Source: an uncultured Phycisphaerales bacterium (lineage in GTDB: Bacteria; Planctomycetota; Phycisphaerae; Tepidisphaerales; Tepidisphaeraceae). From it: DNA of 64,000 nucleotides. The notes beneath the pieces are model-generated. The model was given only the letters and a program-made list of their open reading frames with translations. It did no database searches and had not been told where the DNA came from. Position numbers and translations under genes: made by a program. Below are positions 5,121-50,122 of this stretch, piece after piece (positions within the stretch are counted from its first letter, which is position 1; each line of letters begins with the position of its first letter). The DNA lies in NCBI GenBank assembly GCA_963755915.1, contig CAVWLP010000002.1:1696001-1760000 (forward strand), written 5' to 3'.

Positions 5121-5159
5121 CGTTTTAAGCATATAGGTCTCATCTAATTGGAGGGCAAA

Positions 5160-6995
5160 ATGTCGAATACTGGGCGCGTTGTCGCGTGCAATTCCGGGAA
5201 GAAATCGAATCGGTTCAGTTCATCGGGCAAGTGGCTTGCGGCTGCTGCCGGCGCGGCGTGGGTGCAGATTTTGCCTTCGTCGCATGGATGGCAGACAGCT
5301 CGGGCCGATGTGGTCGTTTGGACGGCCGCGAGCAGCACTAGCTGGGACGGTACGAGTTCGAACTGGAACGATCTTACAAATCCGCCCACGACAACTTACG
5401 CGGATGGTGATGCGGTGCAGTTTTCAGGGTCGTCGCCTGGGGGAAATGTTGTCATCGGCAACGTAACGGGATCAACCCCCAATGGCGTTTCGCCGGCTTC
5501 AGTTGAGTTCACCTCCGGAAGTGACAGCTACACCTTCACCAACGCCAGCGGGGATACAAATGGTATCCAGGGCGCCGCGACCGTGACTCTCGATTCGGGG
5601 TACAGCGGAACGGCGTTCTTCAACAATACAAACACTTATACCGGTCAAACCACGATCGATGGCGGCTCACTTGAGATAAACGGTAGCATGACGGCGCCTT
5701 ATGGCGTCGGCAATAGCCCTATCGTGCTTGGCGGCGGAACACTGGCGCTTCATCAATCGGGCACCCTCAACTCAAACAATTCGATTACGGTCACTTCCGG
5801 AACCACCACGAGCGCAATTGCCGCGGGATCGACCGGGTATAACTGGGTCTATTCGGGCGCAGTGTCGAGTTCCGCCGGCGCGACCGCAACCAATACCGTT
5901 CTGAATTTTCTAGGTGGCAATACCAATACCCTTTCGACTCTGTCCGGCTTTACCGGCACGGTCGAACTTGGCGGCGATGGCGGTGGTTCCGTCCGCCTGA
6001 ATGACGGCGCGGCGACTGCTGCCGCGGGCGGCAGCGCCACGGCGATCTTCGATCTCGGCACCAGCACCGCGACCCTCGCATCCTATAACGGCGGAGGCGC
6101 CGCTCTGGCCGACGCGATTCCGCTTGGTGCTATCGAGGGAAGCGGCGCTAGCTTCCTCAGAGGCGCCGGACACTCCGGCAGCACGGTTTTTGCCATCGGC
6201 GGTTTGGGGCTGACCACCAGCTTCTCCGGCACGATTGAAAACGGTAGTGGCAGTGGCTCGCCTCCCCTAGGTCTCGAAATCGTCGGCGGTGCTTTGACGC
6301 TGACCGGCAATAACACCTACGGCGGGCTTTCGGGTCTCGTGGGCACCAGCATCGAGAACGGGGCACTCTACGCCAACAACACCACCAGCTCGACAGGAAC
6401 CGGCGGCGTCCTCGTCGCCGGCAAAACCGGCATCGGCGCCGGCTACGGCATCCTTGGCGGCAACGGAACCGTACTCGACGGCACCACCGTTAACAGCCCC
6501 ACCGCAGGCGTCTCTTCATTCGCAGAAGGTGGCCTCATTGCTCCAGGCGTTTCGGGCGTCTCAGGACCGGTCGGAACGCTCACGCTCACCGGCGGCCTGA
6601 CCCTCAACGACTGGACGAATCTGGCCTACACCCTCAATGACACGAACGCTTCCGGAAACGATCTGATTTCAACCCTCAACACCAACCTGACTCTTTCCGG
6701 CAACAGCCTGACGCAGGTCGCCTTCGCCTTTGATAACGGCGACCCGGCACTTGGTGTTCCCTACGATCTCATCAACTACGGTACGGGCACTCTCGGCTAT
6801 GTCGCCGGGGGCAGCAATGCAAGTGTTTCCGGCTGGACTGCCACGGGCGTGCCAGGCGGCGATACCGCCACATTCAGCACCCCGGGCAACGGACAGGTGG
6901 ACGTTACCTTCACTCCGGTGCCGGAACCGGCGACAATCGGAATGCTGGGCATCGCTTCACTTGGCCTGATGCGTCGCCGCAAAGCCCGGGCATGA
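5160..6995 (+). CDS. PEP-CTERM surface protein with autotransporter-associated beta-strand repeats
   Basis: C-terminal VPEPATIGMLGIASLGLMRRRK; repeats NTNTYTGQTTIDGGSLEI and LTLTGNNTYGG; Gly/Ser/Thr/Asn-rich. Confidence 0.9.
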   Translation: MSNTGRVVACNSGKKSNRFSSSGKWLAAAAGAAWVQILPSSHGWQTARADVVVWTAASSTSWDGTSSNWNDLTNPPTTTYADGDAVQFSGSSPGGNVVIGNVTGSTPNGVSPASVEFTSGSDSYTFTNASGDTNGIQGAATVTLDSGYSGTAFFNNTNTYTGQTTIDGGSLEINGSMTAPYGVGNSPIVLGGGTLALHQSGTLNSNNSITVTSGTTTSAIAAGSTGYNWVYSGAVSSSAGATATNTVLNFLGGNTNTLSTLSGFTGTVELGGDGGGSVRLNDGAATAAAGGSATAIFDLGTSTATLASYNGGGAALADAIPLGAIEGSGASFLRGAGHSGSTVFAIGGLGLTTSFSGTIENGSGSGSPPLGLEIVGGALTLTGNNTYGGLSGLVGTSIENGALYANNTTSSTGTGGVLVAGKTGIGAGYGILGGNGTVLDGTTVNSPTAGVSSFAEGGLIAPGVSGVSGPVGTLTLTGGLTLNDWTNLAYTLNDTNASGNDLISTLNTNLTLSGNSLTQVAFAFDNGDPALGVPYDLINYGTGTLGYVAGGSNASVSGWTATGVPGGDTATFSTPGNGQVDVTFTPVPEPATIGMLGIASLGLMRRRKARA

Positions 6996-7032
6996 TTTGA
7001 AGTGCCTGAGACTCCTCCGATTAGACAAATTT

Positions 7033-7073
7033 CTGCCCGGCTTGCTTCGGTAAGCCGGGCAGTTTTGTTTTTT
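7033..7073 (+). terminator. Intrinsic terminator
   Basis: CTGCCCGGCTTGC-TTCG-GTAAGCCGGGCAG followed by TTTTGTTTTTT. Confidence 0.85.
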
Positions 7074-7184
7074 GGGGTACCGCGCCATTTGCAGGCCGTC
7101 CGCATTCAGACAAAGGTCAACGGACCATCGGAGATGAGACGCTGATTGGTTGGGATTGCTGCGGCGGCTAAGATTCTATCGGGA

Positions 7185-9352
7185 ATGCCCGGTACGCGAA
7201 TCGAAAATTTGTTTGATCTGGCGCTTCAGCACCAGCGAGCCGGCCGGCTGAAAGAGGCGGAGGCGGCCTATCGGCAGGTTCTTGCCGCAGCGCCCCAGCA
7301 CGTCGATGCCCTTCAAAACCTGGGGCTGATCGTGCAGCAGACGGGACGGATGCAGCTTGCGGTGGATTTGATCGGCAAAGCCGTGCAGTTGCGGCCGGGG
7401 TATGCCCGTGCGGTGAGCAATCTGGCCCGGGCGCTACAGGACAATGGACAGATTGATGAAGCGGTTGCGACGGCGCGGCGTGCGATTGGGCTCAAGCCGG
7501 CGCTCGGCGAGGCGTTTAATAACCTGGCGAGCGCGCTGATTGCAAAAGGAGAATTCGATGAGGCGATTTCAGCCTGCCGGCAGGCGATTGCCATCAATCC
7601 GAAATTGTTTCAGGCGTATGGAAATCTTGGCACGGCGCTTACCGCCAGGGAACAATTTGCAGAGGCGATTGGGGCCTATCGGCAGTTGATCGCGCTGAAG
7701 CCTGACGTTGCCCAGGCGCATTTTAATTTAGGGGATGCGCTAACAAAAACCGGTCGGCTTGATGACGCGATCGCGGAATATCGCCGGGCGGTTGAATTGA
7801 AGCCGGATTACGTCGAGTGCCTGACCGAACTTGGATGTGCTTTGCAAACCAAGGGATTTGTGGGTCTGGCCATCGAGGCTTACCGCAAGGCGCTGGCGCT
7901 GAATCCGGAGCTCGGCGAGGCGCATGGCAATTTGGGCAACGCGCTGCGGGATAAGGGTGAACTGGACGAAGCCATCGCGCATCATCAGCGGGCGATTGTT
8001 CTTATGCCCAATTCTGCCCTGGCGCAAAACAATCTGGGAAGCGCGTTGCTGGGCGCGCAGAGCTTGATGACGCGATTGCCGCCTACAAGCGGGCCCTGGA
8101 GCTGAAGCCCGGTTATGCGGATGCGGACAGCAATCTGATTTTGGCGCTGCTTTATCGAAGCGGAGATGACGATGCGCTGATTGCTTCGCAGTGCCGCGCG
8201 TGGTCGGACGCGCATGTTCAGCCGCATCGATTTGAGATGGTTGGACATGCGAACGAGCGATTGCCGGAGCGGCGGCTGCGGATTGGATATGTTTCGGGGG
8301 ATTTGCGAAGGCATCCAGTCGGATATTTTTTGCAGCCGTTGCTGGAGCATCATGACCGCGGAAATTTTGAGGTTTACGGTTACTCGAACTCGAGAATTTC
8401 GGATGAGCATACGAAATGCCTAAGGGCATTTTGCGATGTGTGGCGCGATGTTGTGGACTTGCCGGATGAACAGGCGGCTTCGCAGATAAGGGAGGATGCT
8501 ATAGATGTTCTGATCGACCTGGGTGCGCATATGCGCGACAACCGCCTGATGGTGCTGGCGCGGAAGCCCGCACCGGTGCAGGTTGCGCATCTGGCGTACC
8601 CGGCGAGAATCGGGCTGGAAAGCATCGACTATCGGTTTACCGATCCGTATCTGGATCCTCCCGGCGAGGAGCCGGCGGGGGAACGAATCTTTCGCCTGCC
8701 GCATACTTACTGGTGCTATGTGCCGCCAATGGAGGCGGGGGAGATCGCTGAGCCGCCGATGTTGCGCGCGGGATTTGTCACCTTCGGGTGCCTGAATAAT
8801 TTTGCCAAGGTTTCGCCGGCGGCGCTGGAGGTGTGGAGGAAAATCCTTGTCGCTGTTCCGGAATCCCGTCTGCTGCTGCACGCGCTGGAGGGAAGTCATC
8901 GTGATCGAGTGTGGGAAATGTTTTTACAAGCGGGAATCGATCGTGGACGAGTGAGTTTCGTGGGGTGGATGAGTTCGAAGGAGCACATGGATCAATACCA
9001 GCGGATCGATATCGCGCTGGATCCGTTTCCCTTTGCCGGAGGGACGACGACGTGCAACGCACTTTGGATGGGCGTCCCGGTGGTGACTCTTGCCGGGCGA
9101 ACCTCCATCGGACGAGGGGGAGTAAGTATTCTGAGCAATGTGGGGCTTACGGAATTGATCGCGGGGAACCGGGAAGAATATGTACGGATCGCCGCGGAGC
9201 TGGCGGGCGATGCGCGCCGGTTGAATGAATACCGTGTGACGATGCGGGAGAAAATGCGGCAATCGCCGCTGATGGATGGGGAGGCGTATGCCCGGGGAAT
9301 TGAGGGGGCGTATCGGGAATTGTGGCGGAGATGGTGCTGCCGGCAGCCATGA
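7185..9352 (+). CDS. TPR-repeat GT41 (SPINDLY/OGT-like) protein glycosyltransferase (frameshift near 8060)
   Basis: Multiple TPRs then RLRIGYVSGDLRRHPV, RKPAPVQV, DIALDPFPFAGGTTTCNALWMGVPVVTLAG. Confidence 0.88.
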
Positions 9353-38104: not shown

Positions 38105-39879
38105 ATGCAGACCGTTGTTCACGTCACCCACGAAGCGATTCAAAAAATTGGCGGAATTGGCGCGGTATTACACGGACTGCTCACCAGCCGCACCTATCTC
38201 GACAAGGTCCCGCGCAACATCCTGGTGGGCCCGTTCTGGCCCAGCGATGACATTGCCGAGCATCGGCTCGGTCCGCAGGGGGAAGTGCTTTATAGCAGCC
38301 TGGATCATCTCTATCGCTCGCCGCTGACGAGCCGGTTTCGGCAGATCGAGCAGGAGTTCGACGTTGGGATCGTCTACGGCCGGCGTAAATTTTCCGACAA
38401 GGAGACGGGGGTCACCAGCACGCCCGAAACGCTGCTGATCGACGTGACGCGGTATGACGCCCAGAAGATCAACCAGTTCAAGTTTGAGATGTGGAAGACC
38501 TTCGGGATCGAAAGCTCGAAGTACGAATCGATCTGGGATTTCGAGCAGTACATGCGCCTGGCCCGGCCGGCGATCGCGGCGCTGCACGCCCTGGGATGCG
38601 GCAGCGAGCTCGAGCCTTGCGTGATCCTCAGCCATGAATACATGGGCATGCCGACGGCGCTGGCGGCGGTTCTGGAGGGAGAGCGCAGCAATTTCCGCAC
38701 GATTTTCTATGCGCACGAAGTTGCCCCGATGCGGCGGGTGGTCGAGCACCATCCCGGCCACGACACCATGTTTTACAACGTCATGCGCTCCGCGGTCAGC
38801 CAGGGGCATTACCTGGAAGACGTCTTCGGCGACCAGAGCGAATATTACAAGTATTCTCTGGTGAAGGCGTCGCGCTTCTGCGACGGGATTTTTGCCGTCG
38901 GCGATTACGTGCTGAAGGAAATTCGGTTTTTGGGGCCGGACTTTGTGCACGTCGACAGCCAGATTGCCTACAACGGGGTTCCGTGCTGGAAGATCAGCGT
39001 TGAGGAGAAGATGTCGAGCCGGCAGAAGCTGCGCGCGTATTGCAATACGCTGCTCGGGTATGAGCCGGATTATGTTTTCTCGCACGTGACGCGATTGGTG
39101 CCGAGCAAGGGCTTGTGGCGCGATCTGCGCGTGCTGGAGCACGTGGAGCGGATCTTGCGCGAGCGCAACGAGACGGCCGTGCTCTTTACGCTGAGCACGG
39201 AGGTGCCGGGGCGGCGCGGCGATGATATCAGGAAGATGGAGCAGCATTATCACTGGCCGGTGGTGCATCGCGAGGGGCTGCCGGATATGTCCAACGGGGA
39301 GGCGGCCTATTACCAGGGCGTGCAGGAATTCAATGCCCGCTCGCGGAATGTGAAGGTGGTCTTCGTCAACCAGTTTGGGTTTGACCAGAAGGTTTGCGGG
39401 CTGAGGATGCCGGCGGATATGGAGTTCATGGATATCCGCAAGGGCTCGGACGCGGAGTTTGGGCAAAGCATTTATGAGCCGTTTGGGATTGCGCAGGTGG
39501 AGCCGATCAGTTTCGGCGGCATTTGCGTTTTCTCGAATGTGTGCGGATGCGCCGGTTTCGCGGACAAGGCGGCGGGGGGCAAGCCGACGCCGAACGTGCT
39601 GGTGGCGGATTACACGGATCTGCCGAACAAGACACTGCGCCGGATCAGCTCATGGCGATCGGTCAGCCGCAGCGGGATGAGATTGAGCATGCGGTTTCGG
39701 GCGTGGTTGCCCAAGAGCTTGTGCAACGGCTGCCGCGAACGCCGGCAGAGTTTGAGCAGTTCCTCGAGCGCGGGCACGCGCTGGCGAGCCAGATGAGCTG
39801 GGACGTAGTGGCGCGCGATTATGTGCTGCCGGGAATCCAGCGGGCGAGCCGGGCGAAGCGGTTGCAGCAGATCGCTTGA
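38105..39879 (+). CDS. GT-B glycosyltransferase resembling GT3 glycogen synthases (frameshift near 39635)
   Basis: THEAIQKIGGIGAV, SHEYM, YNGV, SIYEPFGIAQVE, MSWDVV. Confidence 0.65.
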
Positions 39880-39956: not shown

Positions 39957-40559
39957 ATGAGACGCTTAGGGCGATCGGTGTTTAATGCGCTGGCGGTGGG
40001 ATCGCTGGTGCTCTGCATCGCCATTGGGGCCGCCTGGGCGCTCGGTTTTCCCTTGTCCGCAAAGAGAATGCATTCACTCGGCGCCCGATGGGAATTCGGG
40101 TGGTTTCTCGTGCGCCAGCCTCCCGTGCGAACAGAATGCCAAGCTGTACTCTGTCATTATTTACGCGACCTCGTGCCGGGCCCTCCAGCCCCTCCGGCCG
40201 GGTCCAATATACTAACCCCGCAGATCGTGGCTTGGAGCAAACAGTTTGGAAACACGCGAAATTGGGGCACGGCTGGGGGATTTTTTATAGCTGCGTGGCC
40301 GATTATTGGGGACATTCATTCAAAGCGGGTGGCGATGATGGGGTATGGGTACACCGTCGGTGCGCCGCCGTGGATCTGGATGGGACTTCTGGCGATTCTG
40401 CCGGCGATTGCCGCGATTCGCTGGCGCGGGCGGACTCGCAGACGACGACTGTGCGAAGGATTGTGCCCGGTTTGCGGGTACGATCTTCGCGCCACGCCCC
40501 AGCGATGTCCGGAGTGTGGGACGGCTGTTTCGATTGCGGTAGCAAGTCACAATGTCTAG
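39957..40559 (+). CDS. Membrane protein with variable loop and C-terminal Zn ribbon, tandem copy 1
   Basis: MRRLGRSVFNALAVGSLVLCI .. TM .. GLCPVCGYDLRATPQRCPECG. Confidence 0.82.
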   Translation: MRRLGRSVFNALAVGSLVLCIAIGAAWALGFPLSAKRMHSLGARWEFGWFLVRQPPVRTECQAVLCHYLRDLVPGPPAPPAGSNILTPQIVAWSKQFGNTRNWGTAGGFFIAAWPIIGDIHSKRVAMMGYGYTVGAPPWIWMGLLAILPAIAAIRWRGRTRRRRLCEGLCPVCGYDLRATPQRCPECGTAVSIAVASHNV

Positions 40560-40607: not shown

Positions 40608-41222
40608 ATGAGGCGCTTAGGGCGATGGGTATTTAATGCGCTGGCAGTGGGGTCGCTGCTGCTTTGCATTTTCACGGGGGTTGTTTGGGGGCTGCATTTC
40701 AATTCCACAGCCATTGTAGCGATTAAACTGCCGTTCCGGTGGGAAACGGGGTGGTACCTTGGTAGGGGGATTGACGGGATTCATCGAGCTCAACTATCGG
40801 TGGCGTTTATGTATTCGCCGCCGACGCGAATCTTGAGTCCGCCGTTCTCGGGATTCGCCTTCACTCCGCAGGATCGAAAATGGATGAATCAGTTTGGCGC
40901 AGGATCGCGATCGGGTCGCGGAGCATTTCAATTCAGCGAAGGGCCGGTGATCGTCTACGACCGGACGCTGGGGCGCCTTGTGATGTTTGGGTACACACAT
41001 GAAATCGGCCTTCCCGTGTGGTTCGTCATGGTGCTTTTGGGGATTCTCCCCGCGCTGGCAGGGTGGAGATGGCGGCGGATTCGGATCGAGCGGGCTCGGA
41101 AGGGATTGTGCCCGGTTTGCGGGTATGATCTTCGCGCGACGCCCCAGCGATGTCCGGAATGTGGGACCGTTGCTGCTCCGAAGGGACCGTTGGAGATCAA
41201 GGCAGGTTTGTTCGGTCGGTGA
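40608..41222 (+). CDS. Membrane protein with variable loop and C-terminal Zn ribbon, tandem copy 2
   Basis: MRRLGRWVFNALAVGSLLLCI .. TM .. GLCPVCGYDLRATPQRCPECG. Confidence 0.82.
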   Translation: MRRLGRWVFNALAVGSLLLCIFTGVVWGLHFNSTAIVAIKLPFRWETGWYLGRGIDGIHRAQLSVAFMYSPPTRILSPPFSGFAFTPQDRKWMNQFGAGSRSGRGAFQFSEGPVIVYDRTLGRLVMFGYTHEIGLPVWFVMVLLGILPALAGWRWRRIRIERARKGLCPVCGYDLRATPQRCPECGTVAAPKGPLEIKAGLFGR

Positions 41223-41290: not shown

Positions 41291-42031
41291 ATGTATTCGA
41301 TTGTCATTTGCTCGAAGGATGATGCGAAGTTCTCCGCCGTGTCGGCGAACCTGAGAGACCGGTTCGGCGGGCGGGAATTTGAGATCGTGCGGATTGCTGA
41401 TGCGCAATCGATGGCCGAGGGGTATAACCGCGGGGTGGCGCAGGCGCGCGGCGAGCGGGTGGTTTTTTGTCACGATGATATTGAGATTCTCAATCCCGAG
41501 GCGGTCGAGCGGCTGGAGGAGCACCTGGGAAAATTCGACATCGTGGGGATCGCAGGGGCGGATCGCCTGATCGTGGCCTCCTGGGTGGGCGCGGGACCGC
41601 TGCATACGTTTGGGCAGGTGGCCCAGTTTCAGGAGGACGGGAGCCTGGCGGTTTTTCTGTTTGGGACATCCCAGCGCGTGACCGGGGGGATGCAGGCGCT
41701 GGATGGGGTCTTTTTGGCCGTGAACCGCCGGGTGTTTGCGAAGATTTCGTTTGACGCGAAAACGTTTGATGGGTTTCACCATTACGATCTGGATTTTACG
41801 TTTGCGGCATACCTGGCGGGATTTCAAATCGGGGCGGCGAGCGATGTGCATTTGCTGCACGCGTCGATGGGGACCTGGGACGAGGCATGGAGGCGGTATG
41901 CGGGGATTTTTACGGCGAAATATCGGAAGCAGCTTTATCCAGAGCCGCTGAGGAAGCATTTTTCGGCGCGGATATTCGCGAAGAGCAAGGAGGAGTGTGC
42001 GGAAATTATGCGCGAGGCGACGCCGAAATAA
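41291..42031 (+). CDS. GT2-like (GT-A) glycosyltransferase
   Basis: YSIVICS, SMAEGYNRG, FCHDD, ALDGVFLA, FDGFHHYDLD. Confidence 0.82.
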   Translation: MYSIVICSKDDAKFSAVSANLRDRFGGREFEIVRIADAQSMAEGYNRGVAQARGERVVFCHDDIEILNPEAVERLEEHLGKFDIVGIAGADRLIVASWVGAGPLHTFGQVAQFQEDGSLAVFLFGTSQRVTGGMQALDGVFLAVNRRVFAKISFDAKTFDGFHHYDLDFTFAAYLAGFQIGAASDVHLLHASMGTWDEAWRRYAGIFTAKYRKQLYPEPLRKHFSARIFAKSKEECAEIMREATPK

Positions 42032-42248
42032 GTTTTTTGTCCGTTTTGAGGGGCGAGCGGCCATATATATCGGTGACACCCGAGCAGTTTCTGGGGCAGT
42101 TTCTGCGCCATCGGGGAGCTCGATCTGCAACAAAGGTCGAGGATCGTCGTCTTAATAGGTTGATGGACGGAATGCCGTGGCCGGTCAACCTTGCTGCGCG
42201 GGGGGGAGGTTTATTCTGGTCTGGTGACCACTTCTATAAACCGGAGCT

Positions 42249-44486
42249 GTGAATGATCGGCGGAGGGAAGGAGCAACTGATGCGAATCGGGGGGAGAAGA
42301 ATCTTCGATTGGCGGGGTGGGTGATGGTCGTGGGGGTGCTGGTTTGCTATTCGATTCATATCGCGAGACTGGGGCTCGACTGGCGGCAGGATTTCTGGGT
42401 CTTCTGGGCCCCGGAACATGCCCAGGGAGATATCGATAATGCGATGAAGAATGGGGACATGGTGCTGCGCCATGCGGATGACATCGCCCAGGCGGATTCG
42501 AAGAATAGCCGGGGGCCGCTAGAGGTGAATGCGGCAACCATCGAGCATCCCGGGCCAGGCCTGTTTGATTCGCCGTTTACGGTCGGCAATTTTTTCCAGC
42601 GCTGGCATCGGCTCCGGCCCGTTTATGGGCAGATTATTCGCGGGTGGGTTGCGACCTATGAGGATCTTTTTCACAGCAATCCCGACCAGGATTACGATCT
42701 GGATTATCCACCGATGCGGCTGCTGACGATGACGCTTTGGACGTGGAAGGTGCAGAGCGAGTATCCGGGGCTGACGCAGTTTCCGCATCAGCCGCAGCGG
42801 GTGTTCGACCCGTATCGGAACCAGTCGGTGCTGGCGACGATGGACGTGGCCCAGCCGGTGCTGAGGATCAACGAAATTGCCGAGGGAACGACGGCGATCT
42901 CCGTTTTCCTGCTGGTGTGGCTCTGGATGGAGCGGCGGCCGAAATCGCTGGGGCTGGCGCCGTTGGGGTGTGCGCCGGAATCCTGGCGGGCGCGGTGGGG
43001 GGATCCGATGCTGCTGGCGCCGGTGGTGATCCTGGGGATTTGCGCACTGTTCCGGTCGAACGTGACCTGGACGTGGGCGCTCTCCGCGCCGGATAGTCTC
43101 AGTACATCGCTCATCGATCCGCGGGTGGTCAGCGTGAGCTGGTGGGTGATGCTGCTGCTGAGATTTTTGTCGGCCGTCTCCCTGGCGCGATTTTTGCCCC
43201 GGCCATATCGAGCGCCGATGTGCGCGCTCGTGGCCGGCACGTTTGCCTGGCTGAATCCCGCCTCGATTTTGGATTCGTTCGGCTGGCCGCAGTGGGACAC
43301 CTGGCTGCCGCCATTTTTCCTGGTGGCGGCCGTGCTGGCGACGCTCGACTGCTGGGTGATCGCGGGGCTGGTGCTGGGGGTGGGGTGCATGTTCAAGGGG
43401 CAGTTGATTTTCGTTTCGCCGGTGCTGTGGCTTTGCCCGCTGCTGGCGGGGTGGCCCGGGAAATTCATGCGGATCGTCACCGGGACCGCGGCCGGGGCGG
43501 GATTGATCGTCTGGCCCTGGCTGGTGACCAATGAGATGGCGCTGAAATGGGTCTTCTTCGCGGTGGCGACGGCGGTGTTTTTCTGCGCGCTTTCGGTGCT
43601 GCGGGGATTTTTGTGGGAAGAAGGGAAGGAGGCGTGGCGACAGTTATCCGGGAAATGGACGCCCCGCGTGAACCAGGGAATCCTGGCCGGCGGAGGGATC
43701 GGAATCGTAGCCGTGCTCTGGCTGACGGGGGCGCTGATGATTCGCCACGGAACGTCGATCGCGCCGGTGCTGCTGGGGATCGCCATCGTCGCGGTGCCCT
43801 GGGTGCTGCGCCGAAAACTGACGGGGGCATGGATTTTGTTCGTCTTCGCGGCGTCGCTTTGGCTGGTTTATGTCTACGCGGGAGGCAGTACGTCGTGGTG
43901 GGACGTGGGATTTGTGTATGGCACGCAGAAGCATTCCGTCATGCAGCTTGGGGCGGAGAGCCTGAGCAATCTCTCGTCGCTGCTGCATGAGCGATATCAA
44001 TGGGAGCTACACGATCACGTGACGACGCTGAATTTGCTGGGGCATCCAATCGATCTGGACGTGCAGGGGTTTTGCGGGGCGATTTATTTCGTATGCGCGT
44101 TTTTGTGCGCCGGCGCGGCCGCGATGCACATGCGGCGCAATGACGCCCGGTTTCTCATCGTATTGGTAGCCCCGTGGGTCCTGTTTACCATGCTCCTGAC
44201 GCAGATGACGGCGCGGTATACGGTGCTGCCGGCGGTGGTTGCCTCCAGCCTGGTGGGGGTTTCGGTGGAGATGAGCTTGTTCCCGTTTTTGCAGACGGTG
44301 CTGGCGTGTCTGATGCTGGGGAACCAGACCATGGGAAGCCAGAGCGCCACTGCGCCGATCACATTTTCGATCACCTCGCCGACGTATCCCGATCTGGGCT
44401 GGCTAACGGTTCTGCTGGCAGCGGTCTTCCTGGTGAGCGCGCTGATGCCGACGATTCGGTGGCGGCGGCGGGTCGAGGTGCTCTGA
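42249..44486 (+). CDS. Polytopic GT-C glycosyltransferase-like protein, ALG6/ALG8-type motifs, paralog 1
   Basis: More than 12 TM segments; DYDLDYPP, NPASILDSFGWPQWD, CMFKGQ, QMTARY. Confidence 0.65.
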   Translation: MNDRRREGATDANRGEKNLRLAGWVMVVGVLVCYSIHIARLGLDWRQDFWVFWAPEHAQGDIDNAMKNGDMVLRHADDIAQADSKNSRGPLEVNAATIEHPGPGLFDSPFTVGNFFQRWHRLRPVYGQIIRGWVATYEDLFHSNPDQDYDLDYPPMRLLTMTLWTWKVQSEYPGLTQFPHQPQRVFDPYRNQSVLATMDVAQPVLRINEIAEGTTAISVFLLVWLWMERRPKSLGLAPLGCAPESWRARWGDPMLLAPVVILGICALFRSNVTWTWALSAPDSLSTSLIDPRVVSVSWWVMLLLRFLSAVSLARFLPRPYRAPMCALVAGTFAWLNPASILDSFGWPQWDTWLPPFFLVAAVLATLDCWVIAGLVLGVGCMFKGQLIFVSPVLWLCPLLAGWPGKFMRIVTGTAAGAGLIVWPWLVTNEMALKWVFFAVATAVFFCALSVLRGFLWEEGKEAWRQLSGKWTPRVNQGILAGGGIGIVAVLWLTGALMIRHGTSIAPVLLGIAIVAVPWVLRRKLTGAWILFVFAASLWLVYVYAGGSTSWWDVGFVYGTQKHSVMQLGAESLSNLSSLLHERYQWELHDHVTTLNLLGHPIDLDVQGFCGAIYFVCAFLCAGAAAMHMRRNDARFLIVLVAPWVLFTMLLTQMTARYTVLPAVVASSLVGVSVEMSLFPFLQTVLACLMLGNQTMGSQSATAPITFSITSPTYPDLGWLTVLLAAVFLVSALMPTIRWRRRVEVL

Positions 44487-44487
44487 C

Positions 44488-47183
44488 GTGACCACGCCAA
44501 CCACCCAGGCTTACGATTTGAAGGATTCAGCGCCGGCGCTGCCGGCGGCGGTGGCAGCGCCGCCTCCGCCGGTGATGATGGTCCGTCGCGACCGGCGGCT
44601 TCAGTGGTGGGGCAAATTCCTCACCTGGGCAATGGTGGTGGTCTTCCTCGCCGGCGGCACGCGCTGGGCCCTTCGCGCGGGCTTGGCCCAGCGCGATGAA
44701 ATGTGGCAGTACACCCATTCGATCCGCTTCAAGGAGGACATCAGCCGGGGGTATCAGTTCGGAAACGCGACGCTGCGCTACGCCGAAACCCAGGCGGGGC
44801 TCGATCCCTTGGCGGATGCCTATGCCGCACAAACCGCTGACTTTCTGCGCAAGCACGACCGCCCGGATTTAATCGGCAAGCAAAGCCCGACGTTTCGCCG
44901 GCTCACGATTCGCGAGGTGGCGGGCGGAATCGTCGGGTATATCGATTCGGTTGTGGAGCAGGGAGGCGATTACGACCTCGATTATCCGCCGCTTCGGCTC
45001 GGGGTGATGACGCTTTGGGTGCGGCACATTCAGCGCACGCATCCCGAGCTCGACACGTTTCCGCAGGAGCGAGCCGACGACACCGACCTGGTGCAGGAGG
45101 AGGACATCGCCGGACCGGTGCTGAATTTCAACAGCTTCTGCGAAGGCGCGGCCGCGGTGGGGATGTTTCTGCTGGTGTGGCTGTGGGTGCATCGGAGTTT
45201 CAAGCCGGTTGCGCCGCTGGCGATTGGGAGATGGATCCGGAAATTGCGCAGCGCGCCGAAGCCGCTGCTGACCCTGCGCCGCGCCCGTCGGGCCGCTGGG
45301 GTTGGACGGTCCCGCACGGGATTTTCGCCTTCATGGCGGCGACGACGGCGTTCTGGTGCGCGTACTCGGCGCTGGTGAAGTTTCCACCGCGACCGACGCC
45401 GGCGGTTTCGGTGGTGCAGATTCAGCCGGGGGACAATGGGGCGACGGTCGTGGTGAATGTTGACGCGCAGGGACAGGAGAGACGCGCAGTGGCATTTGCA
45501 GTGGGGGCCGACGGGGAGTTATGGGGAGAATTCCGCGGCGCAGTCGCTGGATTCATCGGTGGGGGACCAGCAGGTGAGCGCGCAATTGAGCCCGGTGCAG
45601 CCAGGCGAGACGATTCATTTTCGGGTATGCGCCAGCAGCCCCGGAGGGTGGACGAGCAGCGACGATTTTTCGTTCGTGAACCGCGGGGGAGCGATCGACG
45701 TCAACAGCGACCCGGTGGGGGGGATCGATTGGCCGAGCGCGACGGTTTGGCTGCGAATGCTGGTGCTGTTTGTCGCCATGGTCCTCAGGCGCAACTCCTG
45801 CCGCAGATGCACAAGGGGTGGGCGTGCGGAGCCGTGGCGGCCATGCTCGTCTGGTTTGATCCGATTATCCTCATCGATTCGCACGCCTGGCCGCAGTGGG
45901 ACGTCTGGATCCTGCCGATCTTCATTTTCGCGGTGCTGGCGGCTTCGCTGGACTGGTGGATGCTCGCCGGGGCGATGATCGGAATCGGGTGCATGTTCAA
46001 GGGGCAGATGCTGCTGGGGGGGCCGGTGCTGCTTCTCTGGCCCCTGATCGGTGGGCGATTGAAAATGTTTGGCCGGGCCGTGACCGGATTTGTGATTGCG
46101 GCGGAGCTGATCGTCTGGCCGTGGATCGTGAATTCATCAGCGGGATTGCACTGGATTGAATGCGCGATCATCGCGGCGCTGCTGCTGATGGGCGTTTCGC
46201 TGATGCGCCGGCAATTGTGGACGGCGATCCGCCAATGGCTGATCGACCCGCTCATCGGCCCGCGGAAGGGTTCGCGCGATCTGCTGGCAGATGGCGGTGG
46301 AGACAATGCGGCGACGGCGCTGGTAACCGCGTCGTCCGTGCTGGCCGCGGTCATCGTGGCGATGGTGCTGATCTTCGCCGGGATGATGCACAAGCAGTCG
46401 GCGCTGCCGCCGGGGACGATGACACTGTTTCTTCTGTTCGTGCTGGTTCCGCCGTGGCTGCTGCCGCGCAGGTCGCTCTTTTACTGGATGGCCGCCGTAG
46501 CCGCGGCCGCGATCTGGATTTCCTCCTCGGCATTCAACGGAAGCTATTCGTGGGCCGAGCTGGGCTTTGCCTATGGCGCGGTCAAGCACGACCAGATGCA
46601 GATGGGGCTGCGGAATTATTCGAATCTCACGTCGATCCTGGCCCAGAATTACCAGTGGGACATTCACGACACCATGGGCACGCTGCGCTTCGCCTTTTCC
46701 ACGCCGGGACCGTGGCGGATTGGAAGTTGGGCCATCCCCTCCGTGAAATGGAGCTGGTCAAGCGACCTGGACACGAAAACAACAATGGCCACGGTTTACG
46801 GCATTTGCCTCCTCATCTCCGCGGCCGCGGCGGCGCTGCACAGCCGCCGCAACGACCGGCGGTTCCTCGTGGCCATCATGGTGCCCTGGGTGGTCTTCCC
46901 GATCGTCATGTGCCAGATGGGCGGAAGATATCCGATCTGGGCATCGGCCCTCTCGGCAGCGATGGTCGCTGTGTCGCTGGAACTATCATTGTTGCATGTT
47001 TTGCTGGCAGTGGTCGGGTTTGCGACGATTGCGCATCAGCTTTTGAATTTTGACAATTCGCGGTGGCCGCAGTTGTTTGAGTTTATGACGCCGACGTTTC
47101 CCGGGGCGGGGTGGCTGATGGTGTTTGTGATGGGAATCTTCTTTTTCGCGGGGTTGGTGCCGAGTCGGACGTGCTCGGAGTGA
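44488..47183 (+). CDS. Polytopic GT-C glycosyltransferase-like protein, paralog 2, with inserted FN3-like domain (frameshifts near 45275, 45480, 45785)
   Basis: DYDLDYPP, DPIILIDSHAWPQWD, CMFKGQ, QMGGRY; colinear with paralog 1. Confidence 0.62.
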
Positions 47184-47186
47184 AGA

Positions 47187-47265
47187 TATTGCCTATTTCC
47201 AATTTCCTATTGATGGATCGCGATTTTTTTCTTCAATAGGCAATAGGAAATCGGCAATAGGAAAT
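47187..47265. repeat. Inverted heptamer-repeat element
   Basis: TATTGCC TATTTCC AATTTCC TATTG ... CAATAGG CAATAGG AAATCGG CAATAGG AAAT. Confidence 0.75.
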
Positions 47266-47312
47266 CATCCTCGCGTTGGAAATTAACGCCAATCCCCCTT
47301 AATCTGCATCCC

Positions 47313-48413
47313 ATGAACGTAAAGCTTTTGGATTTACAGGCGCAGTACGCGCCGATCCGCGAGGAGATTCGCGCCGCGCTGGATGAAGTTTTCGATCACC
47401 AGGCCCTGGTGCTCGGGCCGCATGTTGAGAAGTTTGAGAAAAACCTGGCCGCCTATTGCGGCGTAAAGCATGCCATCGGCGTCAGCAGCGGCAGCGATGC
47501 GCTGCTGTGCTCGCTGATGGCCCTGGGGCTGAAGCCTGGCGATGAAGTCATCTGCCCGACGGTTACGTTTTTCGCGACCGCCGGAGCGATCGCCCGGCTG
47601 GGGGCCAAAATCGTCTTCGCGGATATCGAGCCGGCGACGTTCAACATCGATGTCTCCACGCTTGAGAAAAAGGTCACCCCCAAAACGCGGGCGATTATCC
47701 CCGTCGATCTCTTCGGTCAACTGGCGAATCTGGAGGCCGTGAACGAAATCGCCGCAAGGCACGATCTGAAGGTAATCGAGGATGCGGCCCAGTCGATTGG
47801 CGCCAAGCGCCATGGAAAGCGCGCCTGCTCGGCGGTCTTCGCCGGATGTTTGAGCTTTTATCCCACCAAAAATCTGGGCTCCTTCGGCGACGCCGGCGCC
47901 ATCTGCACCAACGACGACAGTTTCGCGGAAATCTGCCGGCTCATGCGCGTGCACGGCTCCGGCCATCAATATTTCCACAAATACGTCGGCGGGATGTTCC
48001 GCATGGCGGCCGTGCAGGCCGCGGTCCTGAACGTGAAACTAAAATATCTCGAGCAGTGGCACGAAGCCCGCCGGCGCAACGCGGCGATCTATGACACCAT
48101 GCTGGCCGGAAGCAAGGTGGTGACGCCGAAGATCGATGCCGGCAATTGGAGTATTTACAACCAGTACGTGGTCCGCGTGCCGAACCGCGACCGGGTAAAG
48201 CAGGTCTTGCAGGAAAAGGGCATCGGCTCGGCGATCTATTATCCACTGCCCCTGCATATGCAGGAGTGTTTCGCCTACCTGGGGTACAAGGCCGGGGATT
48301 TTCCGCAGAGCGAGCGGGCGTGCGCGGAGGTGCTGGCGCTGCCGGTTTATCCGGAATTGCCGGAAGAACAGGTGAGATACGTGGTAAAAGAGTTATTGGC
48401 CGCGGTCGGGTAA
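47313..48413 (+). CDS. DegT/DnrJ/EryC1/StrS sugar aminotransferase
   Basis: GVSSGSDAL, IEDAAQS, SFYPTKNLGSFGDAG, IYYPLPLH. Confidence 0.93.
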   Translation: MNVKLLDLQAQYAPIREEIRAALDEVFDHQALVLGPHVEKFEKNLAAYCGVKHAIGVSSGSDALLCSLMALGLKPGDEVICPTVTFFATAGAIARLGAKIVFADIEPATFNIDVSTLEKKVTPKTRAIIPVDLFGQLANLEAVNEIAARHDLKVIEDAAQSIGAKRHGKRACSAVFAGCLSFYPTKNLGSFGDAGAICTNDDSFAEICRLMRVHGSGHQYFHKYVGGMFRMAAVQAAVLNVKLKYLEQWHEARRRNAAIYDTMLAGSKVVTPKIDAGNWSIYNQYVVRVPNRDRVKQVLQEKGIGSAIYYPLPLHMQECFAYLGYKAGDFPQSERACAEVLALPVYPELPEEQVRYVVKELLAAVG

Positions 48414-48472: not shown

Positions 48473-49261
48473 ATGCACGACCCTAATTCCTGGCAGAACA
48501 AATTCCACCCCTACACGCTAACCCATCTATGCGTCGTGCTGGTGTTTCTGGCGTTCGTGGTGGCGATGGTGCTGATGCGGCGGAGCGATGTCGTCGCCGA
48601 CGATCCGCCGCTCCGGCGGAGGATGGATCGCATCATCGGGTGGATCTGCCTCGCCGGGGCCTGTTTCGTCCAGCTTGTCACGCTCTGGCCCTCGCGGTTT
48701 GATTATCGCGCCTCGCTGCCGCTGCATATCTGCGACATTGTGATGTTTGTGGCGCCGCTGGCGCTTTTGCTGCACTGGCGGTCGCTGCGGTCGATCGCCT
48801 ATTTCTGGGGGCTGGGGCTATCGTCGATCAGCTTTATTTATCCCGATCTGTGGTTTGGCCCAGGGCATTTTCAGTTCTGGGTCTTCTGGACGGGGCATGC
48901 CTGCATCGTCGGTGCGGCGCTCTATGACATCACCGGCTGCGGGTTCAGGCCGAAATGGCACGACTACCGCTTCATCGCCTGGTTTTCGATCCTGTACGTC
49001 GCCATCCTGCTTCCGATCGACGCCCGGTTTCACCTGAATTACGGCTATATCGGGAAGACCTATGGCGGCCAGCGCTCGCCCACGGATTTTCTGGGCGTCT
49101 GGCCCTGGCGGGTCCCCTTAATGCTCCTGATGGCGCTGGGGATAATGTTTGCTCTGCTGCTGCCCTGGGTGATCCGCCACAAGATCGCCGCGAAGAACCT
49201 GGAAGAGAAGCAGGAAAGCGGGGGACCGGCGCCGCAAGGGTTGCAGAGCGGGGTCCGATAA
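48473..49261 (+). CDS. YwaF/TMEM164-like integral membrane protein
   Basis: LPLHICD, YFWG, FWTGH, NYGY, LGVWPW. Confidence 0.78.
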   Translation: MHDPNSWQNKFHPYTLTHLCVVLVFLAFVVAMVLMRRSDVVADDPPLRRRMDRIIGWICLAGACFVQLVTLWPSRFDYRASLPLHICDIVMFVAPLALLLHWRSLRSIAYFWGLGLSSISFIYPDLWFGPGHFQFWVFWTGHACIVGAALYDITGCGFRPKWHDYRFIAWFSILYVAILLPIDARFHLNYGYIGKTYGGQRSPTDFLGVWPWRVPLMLLMALGIMFALLLPWVIRHKIAAKNLEEKQESGGPAPQGLQSGVR

Positions 49262-49311: not shown

Positions 49312-50122
49312 ATGGACGGCGTGAGCGACGTGCAACCCCCTACTGCCGGAATCGAGCAATCCCTGCTGGGCCAGCTTGGCCAGACCCAGCGGCAGCTTGA
49401 CGAGCTGCGCCAGCAGCTAACCGAATCCCAGCGCCTCGCCACCATCGGCACCATCTCCGCCGTCATCGCCCACGAGTTCAACAATCTCCTCACGCCGATG
49501 GTGAGCTATTCCCAGTTTGCGCTTCAGAGCGCCAAAAGCGATAAGCCCGACATGGAGCTGATCATCAAGGCCCTGGGCAAGGCCTTCGCCGGGGCCGAGA
49601 AGGCCGGGAAGATCTGCGCGGCGATGCTGGCCCTGGCGCGGGGGGAGACGTCGTTTAACAAGGTGCCGGTGCAGACGCTGATCGACCAGGTGCTGGCAGT
49701 GCTGGCGCGATCCGCAGAAGGACGGCATCGCGCTGCGCGTCCAGGTGCAGGGGGATCTGTGCGTGCAGGGGGAAGACGTGCAGCTTGAGCAGGTGCTGCT
49801 CAACCTGCTGATCAACGCGCGGCAGGCGATGCTCGGCAGGGGCGGCTCGCTGACGATCAAGGCAACCGCGACGGGGGAGAGCGAAGTAAAAATCCAGGTC
49901 ATCGACACCGGCCCGGGGATTCCGGAGAACCTGCTGCCGAAAATTTTTCAGCCATTTTTCACCACCAAGGGGACGACGAAAAAAGACGAGGCGCGGGGCA
50001 CAGGATTGGGCCTGGCGATCTGCAAAGACATCATCGAGCATCACAAGGGGCGGATCACGGTCGAGAGCAAGGTTGGGGAGGGGACGACGTTTAACGTCTT
50101 TCTGCCGGCCGCGACAAACTAA
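49312..50122 (+). CDS. Histidine kinase without sensor domain (frameshift near 49710)
   Basis: IAHEFNNLL, QVLLNLLINARQA, DTGPGI, FFTTKG, GTGLGL. Confidence 0.88.

Follow-up and report, generated by a model that had tools for sequence, protein, structure and literature searches.

Two adjacent open reading frames (ORFs), here called ORF A and ORF B, lie in a 64,000-nucleotide stretch of the genome of an uncultured soil Phycisphaerales bacterium of the family Tepidisphaeraceae (assembly GCA_963755915.1, contig CAVWLP010000002.1, positions 1,696,001 to 1,760,000), the whole of which was analysed and is referred to below as the window. The two genes form an intact, selected, coupled and conserved pair within a protein family that has a clear subfamily structure and is so far unclassified. 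Judged from their sequences and by analogy with characterized enzymes, the products are paralogous inner-membrane enzymes that probably adopt the class A fold of the GT-C glycosyltransferases (GTs) and depend on lipid-phosphate sugars, an explanation in which we place moderate confidence. The features of the pair, in window positions, are as follows.

42249–44486, + strand: ORF A, GTG start, 745 amino acids (aa), polytopic with about 13–14 predicted transmembrane (TM) helices, A-type clade
42429–42431, + strand: ORF A, key residue D61
42690–42713, + strand: ORF A, motif DYDLDYPP, residues 148–155
43284–43298, + strand: ORF A, motif WPQWD, residues 346–350
43389–43403, + strand: ORF A, motif MFKGQ, residues 381–385
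44214–44219, + strand: ORF A, R656-Y657, the RY of motif QM..RY
44488–47183, + strand: ORF B, GTG start, B-type paralogue, 898 aa after correction of three single-base errors
45387–45726 (approximate), + strand: ORF B, FN3-like β-sandwich insert, about 113 aa long, predicted to lie in the periplasmic loop that joins TM3 to TM4

A Coupled Pair of Old Paralogues

The stop codon of ORF A (TGA, 44484–44486) is separated by one base from the GTG start codon of ORF B. Gene order was compared across 19 related loci, of which nine belong to the window's genus and the rest to seven further genera (ten loci). In each of the nine, a B-type gene comes directly after A, its start lying exactly 2 nt past the end of the A stop codon; in L047 and L051, two loci of another genus, the start of ORF B overlaps the stop codon of ORF A. 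The two genes are almost certainly co-expressed, and we think that their products are made in fixed proportion from one message.

A reading of this DNA from its letters alone (the sequence-only reading) had described two adjacent, coupled, colinear polytopic ORFs with a set of shared motifs, and all of these motifs were located in both proteins: DYDLDYPP (at residue 148 in A and 161 in B), WPQWD (A346, B468), MFKGQ (A381, B503) and the RY of QM..RY (A656, B814). ORFs A and B are 30–32% identical, in their N-terminal and C-terminal parts alike, and fall into separate, well-supported clades (see below); they are thus ancient paralogues and do not stem from a recent duplication.

ORF B Is Intact in Nature

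As read in the window, ORF B is split over frames at about 45265–45285, 45470–45485 and 45780–45795, as located by tblastn with an intact 855-aa homologue: one base is missing after 45278, one is extra at about 45482, and one is missing after 45788. Logan short-read contigs that are near-identical to the window carry the corrections, with a C added after 45278 (runs X1 and X2), one base fewer at 45482 (X1, X3, and X4), and a C added after 45788 (X1). These four runs, among which the window's own source sample may be included, are short-read soil metagenomes from one study, and they provide an independent read type from the same organism. With the three changes made, ORF B becomes a single open frame of 898 aa without an internal stop, in line with the length of about 900 aa that had been estimated from the letters, and it aligns end to end with intact homologues of 855–927 aa at 56–62% identity.

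Three frameshifts inside 520 bp, one of which also occurs in the related long-contig metagenome-assembled genome L009, could be taken to mean that ORF B is a decaying pseudogene and that the pair consists of one working gene and a remnant. This is exceedingly improbable, in view not only of the corrections in the contigs of four runs and of the open repaired frame but also of the pattern of divergence. Against L009, a 92%-identical relative, ORF B shows 271 mismatches and only two indel columns (45479 and 45788), and in the four segments taken in their inferred frames substitutions at third codon positions number 61/82, 25/35, 29/36 and 88/116 (203/269 in total), a dominance in every segment that indicates purifying selection throughout. 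ORF B is moreover intact (911 aa, L011:3732–6467) in the short-contig relative L011, against which other genes of the window are also frame-shifted, namely a GT-B-like gene (near 39640) and a histidine-kinase-like gene (near 49710). Four of the seven other paralogues of the family in this genome likewise appear split (contig C2 near 114.5–116.5, 667–670, 2701–2703 and 4631–4633 kb), and the genome, assembled in 3 contigs of 6.6 Mb together, reaches a completeness score of only 81%. All of this fits errors of the consensus, and the three frameshifts of ORF B are assembly errors. The assembly has many indel errors of a single base: its broken genes are consensus errors, and its apparent pseudogenes are not to be trusted without reads.

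An Unclassified Family of One Planctomycete Order

The family comprises 677 cluster representatives at E ≤ 0.001 and 231 at E ≤ 1e-30 (among 1.84 billion; clusters at 50% identity). A word-indexed search returned 297 family matches, all of them unnamed or labelled "hypothetical protein," some with the label Tepidisphaeraceae or Planctomycetota. Matches at E ≤ 1e-5 were found in 80 of 141 genomes of the window's order, which consists of a single family, and these include all 12 of the further genomes that belong to the window's genus. Outside the order, an even sample of 400 genomes across the phylum gave no match to protein A at E ≤ 1e-10, and a profile of the short-type members (see below) gave weak matches (E 1e-11 to 1e-7) in only 4 of 300; among the genomes sampled, the family is found in one planctomycete order. 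No publication on it was found in the literature on Tepidisphaera and Phycisphaerae or on GT-C families, which was covered mostly as titles and the beginnings of abstracts.

The genome of the window holds nine loci of the family, set off by a clean gap between members (E ≤ 1e-22) and noise (E ≥ 0.4); the other A-like paralogue, P0067, is on contig C2 near 668 kb. Four groups can be told apart when 59 members are placed in a maximum-likelihood tree: the A type (15 rows, support 100/100), the B type (14 rows, 100/98), a second long group, B2 (12 rows, 100/100), and a group of short proteins of 550–670 aa (18 rows, 100/97), each group being one side of a tree branch. The groups were first drawn from a FastTree tree, so that the later trees confirm rather than independently discover them.

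Topology and Conserved Residues

Topology was predicted from alignment-averaged hydropathy and the positive-inside rule. TM1 (residues ~21–41) is followed by a predicted outer loop of 160 aa that carries R46, D61, G69, Y137, D152, Y153, P155 and R157, and the inner loop predicted after it contains five Lys/Arg residues; WPQWD and K383 of MFKGQ fall at predicted periplasmic membrane edges. Across 111 members, D61 is retained in 107, D152 in 109, P155, R157, K383 and R656 in 110 each, and Q385 in all 111, a near-invariance that rules out chance as the source of the motifs shared by ORFs A and B.

According to a paper on PimE, GT-C class A enzymes have a conserved core of seven helices and, in the first outer loop, two juxtamembrane helices, the first of which bears the catalytic Asp at its tip, a short way past TM1; a Lys and a His hold the donor phosphate (PMC12041525). 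The predicted layout of ORFs A and B appears to match this description. D61, about 20 residues past TM1, is a conserved acidic residue in the first extracytoplasmic loop, as class A would have it, and either it or D152 of LDYPP, which lies in the same loop, may be catalytic; the hydropathy pattern is compatible with the class A fold and not diagnostic of it.

B-type proteins differ from ORF A in carrying the FN3-like insert, which in the window is out of frame as read, owing to two of the assembly errors, and is placed in the periplasm by the predicted topology. A profile of eight B-type inserts finds the FN3 arrays of titin (E 1.2e-5) and, at E 0.3–1.7, single FN3 domains in neogenin, RPTP-F and sidekick; below cut-off, Pfam fn3 matches 3/8 inserts (best E 0.0018) and Pur_ac_phosph_N 3/8.

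Affinity to GT-C Families

By sequence, GT87 and Alg6_Alg8 are the GT-C families closest to the family of ORFs A and B, on evidence that is concordant and modest. Pfam's curated cut-off is 25 bits for both Alg6_Alg8 (PF03155) and GT87 (PF09594). When 39 family members were compared with Pfam, P0112 reached Alg6_Alg8 at 27.1 bits, and P0115, P0116 and P0197 reached GT87 at 34.7, 28.0 and 25.0 bits; all four are of the short type, and the other 35 reach no GT-C family cut-off. The top Alg6_Alg8 score among the 141 genomes of the order (25.5 bits together with its neighbours, L066) belongs to a 582-aa ORF that is itself a member of this family (family profile E 7e-146), and the same search gave no match in 14 control genomes. 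Language-model neighbours of A and of P0036 are bacterial clusters (scores 0.97–0.99) in which 13–46% of members carry GT87, 12–18% Alg6_Alg8 and 14% PMT_2.

A GT87 profile of 43 sequences, built from this genome's own GT87 genes and their homologues, matches the solved mannosyltransferase 9dm5 (E 3e-19) and glycosylphosphatidylinositol (GPI) mannosyltransferase 1 (E 8e-5). Aligned to it with hhalign, the short-type family profile gives E 0.0012 with a probability of 20% over 80 columns, in a register that pairs WPQWD with HQQTD of GT87 and MFKGQ with the conserved AAAxKxTP. The whole-family profile gives the same register (E 0.012, probability 3.7%), as does an alignment to a thin set of eight GT87 sequences that is not significant. 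Reversed profiles scored 21.5 and 16.3 against 37.1 for the real one, and none of 40 block-shuffled profiles reached the real score.

Several results weigh against a GT-C assignment. The best block-shuffled control scored 35.7, close to the real 37.1, and the link to GT87 is local (80–101 columns) and of low probability. ORFs A and B themselves matched no Pfam-A or NCBIfam model in a scan of the window's proteins: neither matches Alg6_Alg8 at E ≤ 0.01, for which the best score genome-wide is 10.9 bits (E 0.5), and both, like all nine paralogue loci, stay below the GT87 cut-off, the eight GT87 genes of the genome lying elsewhere. These eight true GT87 genes are not enriched among the sub-threshold matches of the family profile. 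Searched against PDB sequences, the whole-family and short-type profiles returned nothing at E ≤ 10 except cytochrome b6 (E 0.23). Finally, neither a synthase of polyprenyl-phosphate sugars nor a flippase of the GtrA type is constantly found beside the family's genes, no GtrA/GtrB-type partner recurs in the variable gaps of the related loci, and the genome's sole GtrA-like match is sub-threshold and far from the pair.

Besides the nine members of the unclassified family, the genome encodes the eight bona fide GT87 genes (26–94 bits) on contigs C2 (486, 502, 842, 1475, 4354, 4559 and 4735 kb) and C3 (1209 kb), so that membrane proteins of the GT-C type are very numerous here for a single bacterium.

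Gene Neighbourhood

The genes next to the pair, all on the same strand, are listed here.

38105–39876, + strand: GT-B-like protein with weak Glycos_transf_1/Glycogen_syn similarity; frameshift near 39640
39957–40559 and 40608–41222, + strand: membrane protein pair, tandem paralogues, each with a C-terminal zinc ribbon
41291–42031, + strand: GT2-like gene, 246 aa; PF13712 (Glyco_tranf_2_5), E 9e-21
47313–48413, + strand: DegT-family sugar aminotransferase, 366 aa; PF01041, E 6e-116
48473–49261, + strand: TMEM164/TP0381-family integral membrane acyltransferase-like protein, 262 aa

The co-directional GT2-like and DegT flanks described from the letters are borne out by these Pfam matches. Their conservation, which the sequence-only reading had proposed to survey, proved uneven: the A–B order holds in 9/9 same-genus loci and DegT is often syntenic, being present in 11/19 loci, and the GT2 gene recurs in only 1/19. 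Among loci of other genera, L047, L051, L052, L055 and L056 have an A-like gene followed by one or two B-like genes, L053 and L054 have arrays of several B-like genes, and L048–L050 have a lone A-like gene.

On either side of the array stands a gene that is much more conserved, and the gene content of the place varies. Upstream, the GT-B-like gene is present in 12/19 loci at 84–97% identity and is intact, at 591 aa, in L009 (L009:4279–6054). Downstream, DegT (66–97% identical across loci) directly follows the array in eight of its 11 loci and lies behind inserts of 3.5–6 kb in L043, L044 and L054; the TMEM164-like gene comes after DegT in 6/19 loci. In the same loci, ORF A is 31–65% identical, outside the closest relative, L009. 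The variable gaps hold genes for a protein joining tetratricopeptide repeats (TPR) to a GT41 domain, a YfhO-like membrane protein, a GFO/IDH/MocA oxidoreductase, a Kdo hydroxylase and signalling proteins. In the window, the zinc-ribbon membrane proteins belong to an insert, specific to the lineage, that separates the GT-B-like gene from ORF A, and the GT2_5 gene, shared only with L009, is a recent arrival. Around the seven other paralogue loci of the genome, four adjoin genes for TPR-GT41, GT4, GT25 with a sulfotransferase, or a Wzz-type co-polymerase, and the remaining three have unrelated neighbours or genes without a Pfam match.

Further observations concern single neighbours. The identity of the GT-B-like gene is unusually high for genera between which ORF A is so divergent, and the gene is without a family: its similarity to Glycos_transf_1 and Glycogen_syn reaches only E ~5e-4, the window copy matches no NCBIfam model, and no PDB sequence is matched. 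The zinc-ribbon proteins, about 200 aa each and ending in CxxC...CxxC, have counterparts next to the array in L009 and L055 only; L044 has a gene of this type some 4 kb upstream of A, on the other strand. TPR and GT41 (O-GlcNAc-transferase-like) genes of the window (7146–8105 and 8141–9352, + strand) are probably one frameshift-split gene, 35 kb from the pair; a TPR-GT41 gene also stands beside another paralogue of the genome (L072:2482–4257, − strand) and directly between B and DegT in L043 (3997–6195, − strand), a recurrence that possibly reflects a functional link with the pair. In the AT-rich spacer of 129 bp between ORF B and DegT (47184–47312), a T-run is followed by a 13-base word that ends in AATAGGAAATC and is repeated nearly in tandem, which may be a regulatory site; a scan for consensus promoters and terminators found nothing above shuffled sequences. 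The only PEP-CTERM protein among the scanned ORFs (5148–6995, + strand, 615 aa, C-terminal sorting motif PF07589, E 1e-5) is not near the pair; for the suggested link of the pair to PEP-CTERM proteins, nothing was found beyond this one gene, 35 kb away.

Proposed Function and Alternatives

By analogy with PimE, ALG6 and ArnT, we infer for the pair a fold, catalytic residues, a donor, an acceptor and a mode of action, in sequence or as a complex. At the periplasmic face of the membrane, each protein would receive its sugar from a polyprenyl-phosphate-sugar, which genes elsewhere in the genome would supply; in the long first loop on the periplasmic side, an Asp (D61 or D152 of A) would act on the acceptor hydroxyl, K383 (of MFKGQ) and R656 would hold the donor phosphate, and the sugar would be moved onto an envelope glycan, glycolipid or protein. 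ORFs A and B would be specialized rather than redundant, either forming a heteromer or modifying one product in turn, and ORF B would probably use its periplasmic FN3-like insert to help hold the acceptor. Of the interpretation first drawn from the letters, the coupled pair and, as a probable sequence-based assignment, the GT-C likeness are retained, membership of GT57 and the GT2 partner are given up, and the amino sugar finds no support, for the reasons that follow.

The chief rival holds that ORFs A and B are polytopic membrane proteins of another function, such as a glycan polymerase or ligase, a transporter or a PIG-U-like scaffold, and resemble GT87 and Alg6_Alg8 through composition and short motifs alone. 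The lack of a significant match to any solved structure sequence and the low hhalign probabilities agree with it, as does the resemblance of non-GT proteins such as PIG-U to the GT-C fold noted in the PimE paper (PMC12041525). We nonetheless regard it as unlikely: near-invariant Asp, Lys, Arg and Gln residues at predicted periplasmic edges point to catalysis and not to scaffolding, independent members cross the curated cut-offs of two GT-C families, and the real hhalign score lies above all 40 shuffles and both reversals. The opposite extreme, that the proteins are true bacterial members or direct ancestors of ALG6/ALG8 (GT57) and add two glucoses in turn from polyprenyl-phosphate-glucose, as in the endoplasmic reticulum (ER), would account for the paralogous gene pair and for the LDYPP-type motif in the first outer loop, at which Alg6_Alg8 matches begin (P0112 residues 101–315, profile 42–252), and two short-type members, P0112 and the ORF of L066, do reach the cut-off. 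It is very improbable, in that PF03155 gives no score to ORF A or ORF B, the cut-off of GT87 is reached by more relatives than that of Alg6_Alg8 (3 versus 1 of 39), and the YPP motif, near-invariant in GT87 too, marks a wider group and does not single out GT57. The residues that a review gives as essential in ALG6 are Asp99 and His378 (PMC10859629). The likeness to ALG6/ALG8 does not amount to membership. Since different members cross either the GT87 or the Alg6_Alg8 cut-off, the family could be a bacterial lineage between the two, with A and B forming an obligate two-subunit GT-C enzyme whose FN3-like domain selects the acceptor; this more specific idea is speculative and, in our judgement, doubtful.

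The DegT and GT2 genes, on the same strand as ORFs A and B in the window, and the frequent position of DegT behind the array elsewhere invite comparison with an ArnT-like system, in which DegT would make an amino sugar, the GT2 protein would load it onto a lipid phosphate, and ORFs A and B would transfer it to lipid A or surface proteins. Such amino-sugar transfer is quite improbable here. A GT2 gene confined to the window and its closest relative is a poor candidate for a part of the system, as had been proposed, and its match is to PF13712, the classical PF00535 reaching only 18.4 bits against a cut-off of 23.3. The synthases GtrB, ArnC and DPM1 are of the PF00535 type. DegT is so much more conserved than ORF A that it fits a housekeeping gene held by synteny, and it is set apart from ORF B by the AT-rich spacer and, in three loci, by the long inserts already mentioned. 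Its nearest solved relatives are 7b0d (E 2e-100), WbpE (7e-89) and QdtB (1e-81), with ArnB entries at E 1e-34 to 1e-50; it reaches no NCBIfam equivalog cut-off, the ArnB model giving 181 bits against 631 required. DegT thus has the look of a gene conserved next to the array, not of a partner dedicated to it. In one same-genus locus, L046, a GFO/IDH/MocA oxidoreductase (5975–7168, − strand) follows B in place of DegT; taken with the WbpE-like DegT elsewhere, it is reminiscent of those oxidoreductase/aminotransferase pairs by which 3-amino sugars are made. The reading that we prefer remains that of a coupled GT-C-type pair whose donor would be made elsewhere in the genome.

Significance and Comparison with Known Systems

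The finding is useful as annotation and does not amount to a new kind of biology. Should the GT-C reading prove correct, a family of 677 clusters without a curated model would acquire a name and a role that can be tested, and nine copies of this family beside eight ordinary GT87 genes would point to unusually elaborate periplasmic glycosylation of the envelope in the Tepidisphaeraceae, whose surface chemistry is little studied. Species of the group in culture include Tepidisphaera mucosa, Fontivita pretiosa, "Humisphaera borealis" and Terricella alpina (PMC13514998). The conserved stop–start coupling of two old paralogues also offers a clean system in which to ask whether GT-C enzymes work as ordered pairs or complexes.

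GT87 (PF09594, DUF2029) includes mycobacterial PimE, a polyprenyl-phosphate-mannose-dependent α-1,2-mannosyltransferase solved as 9dm5. Like GT87 proteins, ORFs A and B are polytopic, with a long first outer loop that carries a YPP motif and an Asp motif followed about 30 residues on by a conserved Lys (WPQWD...MFKGQ versus HQQTD...AAAxKxTP, as paired in the weak hhalign match); unlike them, they belong to a family of proteins of 550–930 aa, versus ~400–480 aa in GT87, with extra C-terminal motifs (W550, N574, and QM..RY) and, in the B type, the FN3-like insert. GT57 (PF03155) comprises the eukaryotic ER glucosyltransferases ALG6 and ALG8, solved as 6SNH/6SNI, with which the pair shares two possibly sequential paralogues and, in the first loop on the luminal or periplasmic side, a motif of the LDYPP type, and from which it differs in being bacterial and, among the genomes sampled, limited to one planctomycete order. 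The pair may act in the manner of GT87 or GT57 enzymes; with scores below the cut-offs of both models, it belongs to neither family. The ArnB/ArnC/ArnT (GT83) system places a conserved ArnB-type aminotransferase and a GT2 synthase beside the GT-C gene, an arrangement that was not found here.

In three-component systems, such as Gtr-type O-antigen glucosylation and the GT136 pentofuranose system set out in a recent paper (PMC11127046), the GT-C enzyme acts outside the cytoplasm to modify a glycan of the cell surface, and the GT136 enzyme described there has an extra carbohydrate-binding domain, as ORF B has its FN3-like domain. The present loci differ in the absence of a conserved synthase or flippase neighbour and in having two to five tandem GT-C-like paralogues where those systems have one. 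A survey from 2016 on how N-glycosylation arose describes ER-lumen enzymes with only very distant prokaryotic relatives, which carry PMT or DUF2029 domains (PMC4973528); the family of ORFs A and B lies in the same twilight zone, and if it does prove to be a lineage between GT87 and ALG6/ALG8 whose A and B types are two subunits of one enzyme, they would provide a prokaryotic model for the origin of the paired glucosyltransferases of the ER lumen.

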